A stretch of DNA of 32,000 nucleotides from Candidatus Saccharimonadota bacterium. GTDB taxonomy: Bacteria; Bacteroidota; Bacteroidia; Flavobacteriales; Blattabacteriaceae. Where the stretch lies: assembly GCF_033372575.1 (NCBI RefSeq), contig NZ_CP104094.1, positions 1 to 32,000 on the forward strand, in the 5' to 3' direction. Every line of letters begins with the position of its first letter. Positions within the stretch are counted from its first letter, which is position 1. Shown in pieces: positions 16,779-19,008 of the stretch. The translations under genes and the position numbers were made by a program. A model generated the notes under the pieces. The model was given only the letters and a program-made list of their open reading frames with translations, searched no databases and was not told the origin of the DNA.

Positions 16779-17501
16779 ATGTTAGATATAAATAATTTAT
16801 ATGTAAAAATAAAAAATAATTTAATTATTAAAGGTTTAAATTTAAAAATTAAAAATAATGAAATTCATATCATTATGGGACCAAATGGATCAGGAAAAAG
16901 TACATTATCATATGTAATATCAGGTAAACAAAAATATATAATTGAAAAAGGAAAAATATTATTTAATAATAAATTAATTAATAATTTATCACCTTATGAA
17001 ATATCAAAATTAGGAATTTATTTATCATTTCAATATCCAATAGAAATAAATGGTATAACAATGTATAGTTATTTAAAAACTATATTAAAAAAAAAATATA
17101 ATAATAGAGTAATATTAAAAAAAATATATAAAGTATGTAAAAAATTAAAAATAAATAAAAATTATTTATATCGTTATTTTAATGTAGGTTTTTCAGGTGG
17201 AGAAAAGAAAAAAAATGAAATATTACAAATGTTATTATTAAAACCTAAATTAGTTATATTAGATGAAATTGATTCTGGATTAGATATAGATACATTAAAT
17301 ATAATATTTAAAAATATAAATAAATATAAAAAAAAATATAAATGTTCAATAATAATAATTACACATAATACAAATATTATAAAATATATAAATACTAATT
17401 ATGTGCATATATTATATAATGGAAAAATAATAAAAAGTAGTAATAAGAATATAATAGAAAAAATAGAAAAATATGGATATAAAAAAATAGTAAAACAATG
17501 A
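16779..17501 (+). CDS. sufC: Fe-S cluster assembly ATPase SufC
   Basis: 240-aa ORF. Walker A GPNGSGKST, ABC signature FSGGEKKK, Walker B LVILDEIDSGLD. Confidence 0.95.
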   Translation: MLDINNLYVKIKNNLIIKGLNLKIKNNEIHIIMGPNGSGKSTLSYVISGKQKYIIEKGKILFNNKLINNLSPYEISKLGIYLSFQYPIEINGITMYSYLKTILKKKYNNRVILKKIYKVCKKLKINKNYLYRYFNVGFSGGEKKKNEILQMLLLKPKLVILDEIDSGLDIDTLNIIFKNINKYKKKYKCSIIIITHNTNIIKYINTNYVHILYNGKIIKSSNKNIIEKIEKYGYKKIVKQ

Positions 17502-19008
17502 AAATAGAAGAATTAATAAAAAATATAAATAAAAAAAAAAGAAAAAAATTATTAAAAATATTAATAAAAAAAAAAAAAAAAAAAAAAAAAAAATAAAAAA
17601 ATTAAAAAATAAAAAAAATAAAAAAATAAAAAAAAAAAAAAAAAAAAAAAAAAAAAAAAAAAAAAAAAAAAAAAAAAAAAAAAAAATAAAAAAAAAAAAA
17701 AAAAAAAAAAAAAAAAATAAAAAAAAAAAAAAAAAAAAAAAAAAAAAAAAAAAAAAAAAAAAAAAAAAAAAAAAAAAAAAAAAAAAAAAAAAAAAAAAAA
17801 AAAAAAAAAAAAAAAAAAAATTATTAAAAAAATTAAAAAAAAAAAAAAATAATATAAAGGATAAATATAAATATTCAAAAATTAAAAATATTATAAAATT
17901 AAATAAAATATATAATAATAAAAATAATAAATATAATAAAAATGAAAAAAAATATAAATTAAATATAAAATATAATAATGATATAAATATTACATATAAA
18001 AATGGGAAATTAACAAATATAATAATTAAAAAAAATATAAAAAAATTAATAAAAATTAAAAAAATATTAATAAAAAAAATAATTAATAAATATTTAAAAT
18101 ATTTTAGATTTTATAATTATTATTCTTTAATTAATATATTATACTTATCAAATAAAAAAAAATATATTTATTTAATAGATATAAAAAACATTTTAATAAT
18201 AGATTTAAAAATATATTATATATATTTAAAAAATTATAAATATAAAGAAATAATAAATGATAATGTATTTATAAAAGTAAAAAATAAAATTAATATTATA
18301 GAGGAATATATAATTAATAATAATAAAAAAAAAATAATTAATAATTCAATAATTAATATATTATTAAAAAAAAACAGTGAAGTAAATTATTATAAATATA
18401 ATAATAAAACATTATATATAAATAATATTAACAATATCTATATATATCAAGATTATAAAAGTAAATTAATATTATATAATATAGATTATAATAATAGATT
18501 AACTTTAAATGATATAAATATAAAATATATAAATAATAAATGTTATACTAGAGTATATAATATAATAATATTAAGCAAAAATCAAATATTAGAAAATTAT
18601 ATAAATATAAAAAATAATTATAATTATTGTAATAATAAATTATATTATATAGGAGTTTATAATTATAATTCATATTGTGTAATAAATGGAAATATAAATA
18701 TAAAAAATAAAACTAAAAATAATATATCATTACAAAATTATAAAAATTTTATTTTATCTAATAAAGTATTTTTATTTGCTAAACCAGAATTAAATATTAA
18801 TTCTAATAAAGTAATATGTTCACATGGATTTACATTAGGAAAAATAGATAAAAATATAATTTATTATTTATTAACTAGAGGATTAAAATTAAAAAAATGT
18901 AAAATAATATTTTATTTATCAAATATTTATAAATATTTAATTTTAAAAAATAAATATTTAAATAATATAAAAAATAATATTATTAAAAAATTATATACAA
19001 TTATTTAA
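17498..19008 (+). pseudogene. sufD: sufD (Fe-S assembly protein SufD), frame-disrupted as sequenced: the ATG is in one frame and the conserved body is in the -1 frame, separated by a giant poly(A) tract
   Basis: ATG at 17498 overlaps the sufC stop (ATGA). That frame stops at 17603-17605. The adjacent frame is open from 17533 to the TAA at 19006-19008 (492 codons) but has no ATG/GTG/TTG. Its C-terminus (AKPELNINSNKVICSHGFTLGKIDKNIIYYLLTRGL) matches the SufD motif KPQLEI..DDVKCSHGAT.G.ID..QLFYL.SRGI. It sits between sufC and sufS. Confidence 0.65.
17566..17820. repeat. Giant poly(A) tract: 247 A + 8 T, with runs A29, A59, A30 and A102
   Basis: Counted directly: A29 at 17566-17594, A59 at 17628-17686, A30 at 17688-17717, A102 at 17719-17820. 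No G/C at all from 17542 to 17858. Confidence 0.95.

Follow-up and report, generated by a model that had tools for sequence, protein, structure and literature searches.

A lineage-specific poly(A) tract of about 290 nt within sufD of the beetle symbiont Candidatus Shikimatogenerans bostrichidophilus

How can a bacterial gene remain under selection when its start codon and its coding body lie in different reading frames, on either side of some 290 nt of nearly pure adenine? This is the question raised by sufD in Candidatus Shikimatogenerans bostrichidophilus (Bacteroidota), which we address in a 32,000-nucleotide stretch of contig NZ_CP104094.1 (hereafter the window, with positions counted from its first letter); the symbiont has a GC content of about 16%. 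The window carries sufB-sufC-sufD-sufS, an order that is identical in six sister loci. The loci compared here are L081 (CP104095.1, 151,789 bp), L002 (CP099824.1, strain DMIN1), L083 (CP099825), L001, L005, and L082. L081 is the closest sister strain; the genome to which the window belongs is 156,922 bp, and the genomes of this subclade, at 152-157 kb, are the most reduced. The closest genomes are Ca. S. bostrichidophilus, Bacteroidota symbionts of bostrichid beetles, with closed genomes of 173-200 kb and ~15% GC that were mostly assembled from Illumina reads (PMC10284843).

The ATG at 17498 overlaps the TGA stop of sufC as ATGA, a coupling pointed out in an initial annotation of the stretch and borne out by the sequence and by the list of open reading frames (ORFs). 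It opens a frame of 32 codons on the forward strand (17498..17596; MKIEELIKNINKKKRKKLLKILIKK...) that closes with the TAA at 17594-17596, and not after 35 codons at 17603-17605 as had been proposed. The frame of the SufD body is open from 17533 to 19008 (491 codons plus stop) and, as noted before, contains no ATG, GTG, or TTG. sufD is the sole genuine gene of the window without a canonical start; every other gene starts with ATG, no more than 14 codons into its open frame. The two frames are open together in a zone at 17533..17593 (forward strand), which overlaps a run of ten adenines (A10, 17531-17540) and contains the first long run, A28 (17566-17593). One added A in A28, or a -1 shift within 17533-17593, joins the start to the body; the earlier proposal of such a fusion therefore stands, with its end-point moved from 17602 to 17593 by the TAA at 17594-17596. 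That proposal had read the first run as A29 and called for 30 A, whereas 29 A are needed, and the change from A28 to A29 gives a computed intact ORF of 503 codons. As assembled, the locus thus bears one mark of a pseudogene, the loss of a usable start or of continuity with it: the frame of the ATG stops at 17594, and none of the three usual start codons is available to the body.

What lies between is a tract whose core (17566..17820, forward strand) reads A28, T, A7, TT, A6, T, A8, T, A7, T, A59, T, A30, T, A102. The whole expansion covers about 290 nt of nearly pure A, with A28, A59, A30, and A102 as its long runs and an A15 besides, and Tandem Repeats Finder (TRF) reports a period of 1 across 17518-17849. 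Read in the body frame, the core is almost all Lys, giving way to Ile, Asn, and Leu where a T interrupts it. Across 17533-17859 Lys accounts for 91 of 109 codons (89 AAA and two AAG), 34 of them consecutive AAA codons that make up the A102 run, in agreement with the initial count of about 90. The same stretch contains 14 TAA triplets, as had been counted, seven in each of the two alternative frames, and the body frame is free of them. A minus-strand ORF encoding 105 aa of poly-Phe (17561-17878) was set aside as trivial, poly(T) with single A interruptions forming no stop codons.

Comparison with the sister strains shows where the tract arose. In five sister loci sufD begins with an ATG at the end of sufC and continues through a homologous N-terminus, a lysine patch containing A7-A15, and the motif [Y/F]-S-K-[I/F]; in L081, L002, L005, L082, and L083 the homologous patch is limited to A7-A15 and there is no frameshift. 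The 32-codon remnant in the window is homologous to these N-termini (L081 MKLNKLIKNINKKKRIKILKLLK), as illustrated by the alignment of L081 MKLNKLIKNINKKKRIKILKLLKQKKNKIKDKYKY with MKIEELIKNINKKKRKKLLKILIKK ... NNIKDKYKYSK in the window, and the position of the tract is exactly that of the sisters' lysine patch, 25-30 codons into sufD. Because the sisters have only a short patch at this site, the tract is a lineage-specific expansion. Judged by this homology, the ATG at 17498 represents the ancestral sufD start, and the tract is an insertion between that N-terminus and the body. The core is flanked by a 16-bp direct repeat on the forward strand, with the left copy at 17549..17564 (TTATTAAAAATATTAA) and the right copy at 17821..17836 (TTATTAAAAAAATTAA). 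Both copies align to one and the same L081 segment (ATATTAAAATTATTAA), their spacing is 272 nt, which is 3n+2, and each is read in the ancestral codon phase within its own frame. The repeat could be a chance match in low-complexity DNA.

Past the tract, the body extends over 17851..19008 on the forward strand (385 codons plus stop), with no stops compared to 67 and 81 in the other two frames, and the earlier assignment of its C-terminal domain to SufD is well founded. It matches Pfam PF01458 SUFBD_core at E=5e-36, and a clade profile matches E. coli SufD (2zu0, 5awf, 1vh4) at E about 1e-32, as against 1e-8 for SufB; the best NCBIfam match is TIGR01981 sufD, with 123.5 bits, which is under the 222-bit cut-off of that family. 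An AlphaFold2 model of the 385 post-tract residues, built from an alignment without the L081 row, has a predicted local distance difference test score (pLDDT) of 74.5 and a predicted template modelling score (pTM) of 0.75, and in Foldseek comparisons it matches E. coli SufD (5awg_F, 5awf_B, and 2zu0) with template modelling (TM) scores of 0.69-0.71 over about 360 columns. Sequence match, a right-handed beta-helix followed by a C-terminal helical domain, and position in the operon all identify the product as SufD. Post-tract residues 1-38 (about 40) are predicted to be disordered, the modelled fold beginning at residue ~41-45 (about 17971-17983 in the window), and natural short SufDs of 326-344 aa in other Shikimatogenerans lineages begin where the fold starts, near window position 17960. 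The tract therefore lies in a dispensable, disordered N-terminal extension.

The NCBI annotation recognizes only a part of this gene, a 224-aa SufD (WP_420095090.1, here P0001) at 18334..19008 on the forward strand that is 100% identical over this part and starts at an ATA. A start at this position omits about 160 conserved residues. We ruled it out as the real start, since the sister is 77% identical over 146 aligned codons upstream of it; the model likewise contradicts it, residue 162 being placed inside a strand (E162-172), so that a start there would cut the beta-helix.

Selection on sufD was examined by comparing the window with L081, a pair whose four-fold sites are 57% identical (43% differ), not far from saturation for this base composition, at which an identity of ~48% is expected. 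The sufD body is 89% identical to that of L081 in nucleotides and about 80-81% in amino acids, with a dN/dS of 0.30, the highest among the genes compared (0.07-0.20 for metG, rsmA, sufB, sufC, and sufS). Without constraint on the body after the split, each lineage should have gained ~34 new stops, and none is present. The body is thus under purifying selection and constitutes a complete SufD, with neither the stops and frameshifts nor the dN/dS near 1 of a decaying gene (no stops in 385 codons); sufD is no old pseudogene, and if the gene has died at all, this would need to have happened within roughly the last 10% of the lineage. The initial annotation had envisaged that internal stops or relaxed selection in the body of a sister strain might overturn its reading, and neither is seen in L081, where the body is free of stops at this dN/dS. 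The 25 codons that precede the tract are 88% identical in nucleotides to L081, far above the four-fold sites, which argues that the ATG-proximal coding sequence was constrained until recently. The first 60 codons after the tract have a dN/dS of 0.35, and all indels within them are in-frame. A Nei-Gojobori count for the 25 pre-tract codons (nine non-synonymous and no synonymous changes), which might have been read as relaxed selection, was dropped as uninformative because the synonymous sites are nearly all A/G two-fold sites that hardly change under AT bias; the valid test for these codons is nucleotide identity relative to four-fold sites, and it shows conservation.

The openness of the tract itself says less. 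From the 14 TAA triplets a naive chance of (2/3)^14, about 0.003, had been derived, together with the suggestion that the frame is kept translatable. The latter is upheld for the body by its purifying selection; for the tract, the figure is overstated, and a fair p is 0.06-0.15. The calculation is invalid because the 14 triplets are not independent, three lying before A28 and four in ordinary coding sequence past the tract. When only the seven places where T breaks up the core are counted, the chance is (2/3)^7 = 0.06; alternatively, with A59, A30, and A102 free modulo 3 and the short runs at 17594-17627 fixed, 4/27 combinations (0.15) keep the body frame open to A28, and 4/81 run-length combinations yield a complete ORF from ATG to stop. 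Nor is the 1-nt offset readable as biology from an assembly, arising as it does over some 220 homopolymeric nucleotides made up of runs of 28-102 nt, because such runs are not measurable to within 1 nt and because DNA polymerase, RNA polymerase, and ribosome all slip on them. One extra A in A28 is well inside the error with which runs this long are sequenced. Elsewhere in the window, homopolymers of up to A15 do not disturb the frame of any of the ~30 genes; the exact lengths of runs of at least 28 nt are untrustworthy.

We favour, with a probability of roughly 40%, the explanation that SufD is made by read-through from the ATG on a tract of heterogeneous length, given the selection on both flanks, the body frame that is open through all seven core interruptions, and the same phenomenon at rpmG in other strains. 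According to this explanation, an AAA-rich lysine patch ran away by strand slippage to form a T-interrupted poly(A) microsatellite of ~290 nt, in an N-terminal extension that is probably disordered and outside of the SufD fold; sufD would be alive, and the ATG at 17498, coupled to the termination of sufC, would still be its start. Slippage of DNA polymerase, RNA polymerase, and ribosome would produce in each cell a mixture of tract lengths and reading phases, and the genomic phase would be almost irrelevant, transcripts and ribosomes sampling all phases on runs of 28-102 A. We infer that some decoding events would then start at the ATG, cross ~90 residues of Lys-rich linker, and enter the SufD body, with a yield that is low but presumably sufficient. 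If phase is fully randomised at each long run, a computed (1/3)(2/3)(2/3)(1/3), or about 5%, of passages reach the body in frame, and more if randomisation is incomplete. Events of this kind have precedents: poly(A) slippage in Buchnera and Blochmannia yields 12-50% frame-corrected transcripts, with about 40% shifting for an insert of A28 (PMC5009743), runs of at least A11 make E. coli ribosomes slide and often terminate at out-of-frame stops (PMC4363877), and in Plasmodium coding runs as long as 111-132 A are translated (PMC7295572).

Several observations weigh against read-through from the ATG. In E. coli, 12 AAA codons already lower protein output and ribosomes often exit out of frame (PMC4363877), and ~90 Lys codons are far past anything tested in bacteria. 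The evidence that tract openness was kept by selection is weak, and the length of the tract is taken from a single assembly. The short SufDs (326-344 aa) of several lineages lack the N-terminal region, which is accordingly not needed. Lastly, L081, which has no tract, has an in-frame TAA at sufD codon 36 (L081 9575-9577), where all five other strains have Ser, followed by 376 codons that are open and conserved to the normal stop; this is a hard TAA in front of an intact body, and slippage could not rescue it. For L081 the NCBI annotation includes only a C-terminal SufD fragment (P0002, 235 aa, with an ATA start and 79% identity to P0001). The link between ATG and SufD fold is thus broken in each of the two smallest genomes of the clade, differently and within the first ~36 codons, with the remaining ~380 codons intact in both strains. 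This is what one expects if disruptions are tolerated only in a dispensable N-terminal extension, and it means either that production of the body does not depend on an unbroken frame from the ATG or that the two disruptions arose very recently; such an unbroken frame may be dispensable.

Because of the sister's TAA and the natural short forms, we consider internal initiation to be nearly as likely as read-through, tentative though it is when taken by itself. The 32-codon mini-ORF would then be a severed remnant and the body would be translated from a near-cognate codon after or within the tract, with the conserved in-frame ATT 17881, ATT 17890, and ATA 17893 as candidates, and with the unstructured poly(A) acting as a leader independent of Shine-Dalgarno sequences and ideal for a Bacteroidia ribosome, or with reinitiation following the TAA at 17594. 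The L081 body has survived within this subclade without continuity from its ATG, both disruptions hit the opening ~36 codons out of ~415, the short SufDs of other lineages begin near 17960, and the first ~38 post-tract residues are predicted to be disordered. ATT and ATA codons are conserved in frame just past the break in both the window and L081; ribosomes of Bacteroidia make no use of Shine-Dalgarno sequences and initiate more readily where adenines lie upstream and structure is lacking (PMC6847099). However, the 491-codon frame offers no ATG, GTG, or TTG in a window where all other genes start with ATG, the pre-tract N-terminus is far more conserved than neutral sites and so was translated until recently, and the first 60 post-tract codons are still constrained (dN/dS 0.35, in-frame indels only). 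Near-cognate starts are also usually very inefficient.

Two further explanations seem unlikely to us, and about equally so. The true tract could be far shorter (e.g. A15-A30, in frame) or otherwise organised, the assembler having inflated or looped a homopolymer, and sufD would then start at its ATG in the ordinary way and contain a Lys run of modest size. For most of the related genomes, Illumina reads were assembled with SPAdes and then merged manually (PMC10284843), no short read spans ~255 nt of near-pure A, CP099824 contains an implausible sufD-sufS duplication joined at T78+A48, and no sequencing platform could credibly deliver a run length of exactly 102. An artefact does not sit well, however, with the internal structure of the tract (T and TT interruptions, A6-A8 runs) and its unique flanks on both sides, with an assembly polished well enough that runs up to A15 leave about 30 genes in frame, with other clean repeat expansions in the same strain, or with the giant tracts at a second Lys hot spot (rpmG) in an independent assembly. 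Exact look-ups in a contig index of the SufB, SufC, and SufS of the window and of the NCBI SufD fragment recovered no independent assembly of the tract, a metagenome scan with a 38-mer taken from the sufD body gave no match, and a literature search for accession CP104095 found no paper naming it. The other explanation is that sufD died recently and is being lost in the most reduced subclade (152-157 kb), such that the tract and the sister's TAA are first hits on a body that has not yet decayed. Two independent disruptions in the two closest genomes would fit with this, as would a sufD dN/dS that is the highest among the compared genes and other losses at the locus (rpmG in the window, rpmB in L081, and rpsL in both). 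The absence from either body of any of the ~34 stops expected per neutral lineage speaks against it, as each inactivation would need to fall in the last ~10% of its lineage; both hits are moreover confined to the dispensable first ~36 codons, sufB, sufC, and sufS are tightly conserved, and in E. coli SufD forms part of the solved SufB-SufC-SufD complex (5awf).

Read-through from the ATG has its nearest relatives in the slippage genes of Buchnera aphidicola and Blochmannia (Tamas et al. 2008, as summarised in PMC5009743; see also PMC3017870). As in sufD, the hosts are AT-rich, reduced insect endosymbionts, the frame breaks inside an A run with both flanks conserved, and one added A restores it; the break within a long A run and purifying selection on both flanks, which characterise these genes, are both found here. 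In contrast, the Buchnera and Blochmannia tracts are ~9-12 A long and conserved across strains, whereas the sufD runs are 28-102 A (~290 nt in all) and confined to one strain, the relatives (L081, L002, L005, L082, and L083) having only A7-A15. Those hosts are also gammaproteobacteria, whereas the sufD host is one of the Bacteroidota, and rescue of sufD would in addition require the decoding of ~90 Lys codons. The sufD tract is an extreme variant of these known endosymbiont poly(A) frameshift genes, new in its scale and context.

Other systems share individual features with it. Studies of ribosome sliding on poly(A) tracks (Koutmou et al. 2015, PMC4363877; Arthur et al. 2015, PMC4552401) likewise concern iterated AAA codons within an ORF and flanking out-of-frame TAAs, an arrangement that agrees precisely with the model of sliding and termination, although the inserts were of 3-12 AAA and caused strong loss of output, whereas the tract in sufD, a gene apparently still under selection, exceeds them roughly eightfold in length. 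The homopolymeric contingency loci of bacterial pathogens (e.g. PMC7911514) similarly change length by slipped-strand mispairing and switch the downstream frame; however, their tracts are ~7-20 nt and are kept for on/off switching in surface and restriction genes, whereas sufD is a housekeeping gene with a runaway expansion in a clonal, vertically inherited symbiont. Plasmodium falciparum (PMC7295572) resembles the sufD host in its extremely AT-rich coding genome, very frequent A runs, and similar maximum runs (111-132 A). It is, however, a eukaryote with documented ribosome adaptations and expression data. We know of nothing comparable to the poly(A) tolerance of Plasmodium in any bacterium. 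It is a possible but doubtful extension of read-through that the transcription and translation machinery of Shikimatogenerans tolerates very long coding poly(A) as that of Plasmodium does, with giant tracts recurring at Lys patches (sufD here and rpmG in DMIN1), a selected housekeeping gene expressed through ~290 nt of poly(A) and about 90 consecutive Lys, and the frame effectively decided after transcription.

Should the tract prove real and sufD be expressed across it, the poly(A)/poly-Lys stretch would exceed by a wide margin all others known from bacterial genes under selection and would equal the 111-132 A of Plasmodium, and it would provide a natural test of how much RNA polymerase slippage and ribosome sliding can be tolerated, for which there have so far been only inserts of at most 12 codons in E. 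coli. If the body is made by restart, the locus would instead be a naturally occurring example, from Bacteroidia, of initiation at a non-AUG codon that needs no Shine-Dalgarno sequence and follows a poly(A) leader. In both cases the locus bears on annotation, with a 224-aa SufD in NCBI that begins at an ATA in the middle of the beta-helix, and on assembly, which for these ultra-AT-rich symbionts is unreliable at homopolymers (compare the T78+A48 of CP099824).

The genes near the tract (metG, rsmA, sufB, sufC, and sufS) all have strong family matches. sufB is located at 15303-16706; sufC, at 16779..17501 on the forward strand, matches TIGR01978 sufC with 278 bits, over the cut-off; and sufS, at 19010..20233 on the forward strand, also with family matches, is the last gene of the sufBCDS operon. 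Genetic code 4 (UGA = Trp) was ruled out, as table 11 leaves all genes intact and the tRNA-Trp anticodon is CCA. GC content per kilobase of the window varies from 7.5 to 26%, with its minimum of 7.5% at 17001-18000, and A runs of at least 10 nt occur at 1.7 per kb in the window and at up to 4.6 per kb in the sister loci.

The Lys patch of rpmG (L33) is a second poly(A) hot spot, encoded on the minus strand. It carries an in-frame A20 in L005 (9459-9478), an A16 in L083 (12697-12712) with the N- and C-terminal halves in different frames, and A41-T-A47 with a frame change in L002 (12305-12393); L081, L082, and L001 have no tract there. In L002 a block of sufD-sufS-rpmG′ is present twice within 6740-12453, the second copy being exact (identical sufS genes at 7971-9206 and 10839-12074), with the copies joined at the T78+A48 junction (9437-9562). 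This looks like a misassembly through homopolymers and not a real duplication.

Gene content downstream of sufS differs between the strains. In the window rpmB (L28, 20250-20468, minus strand) lies directly past sufS with no rpmG there, whereas L081 has rpmG in the corresponding region (11936-12210) and no rpmB match. rpsL (S12) is missing between map and rpsG in the window and in L081; it is present at this position in L082 and L083 and was also found by tblastn in L001 and L005. The genes rpmG, rpmB, and rpsL may be elsewhere in the genomes concerned.

Other repeats have expanded cleanly in the window strain, which indicates that slippage-driven expansion is real in this lineage. At 16715-16777 the unit AATAG, repeated 12.8 times, fills the spacer between sufB and sufC, a spacer that in L081 is 23 nt long and has no repeat. 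A near-perfect 15-bp tandem repeat of 8.2 copies (21036-21160) is located between a gene at 20516-21025 and map, just upstream of tRNA-Val, and a 39-bp repeat of 2.4 copies with 98% matches (26133-26225) lies inside a ribosomal-protein coding sequence, whose frame it keeps.

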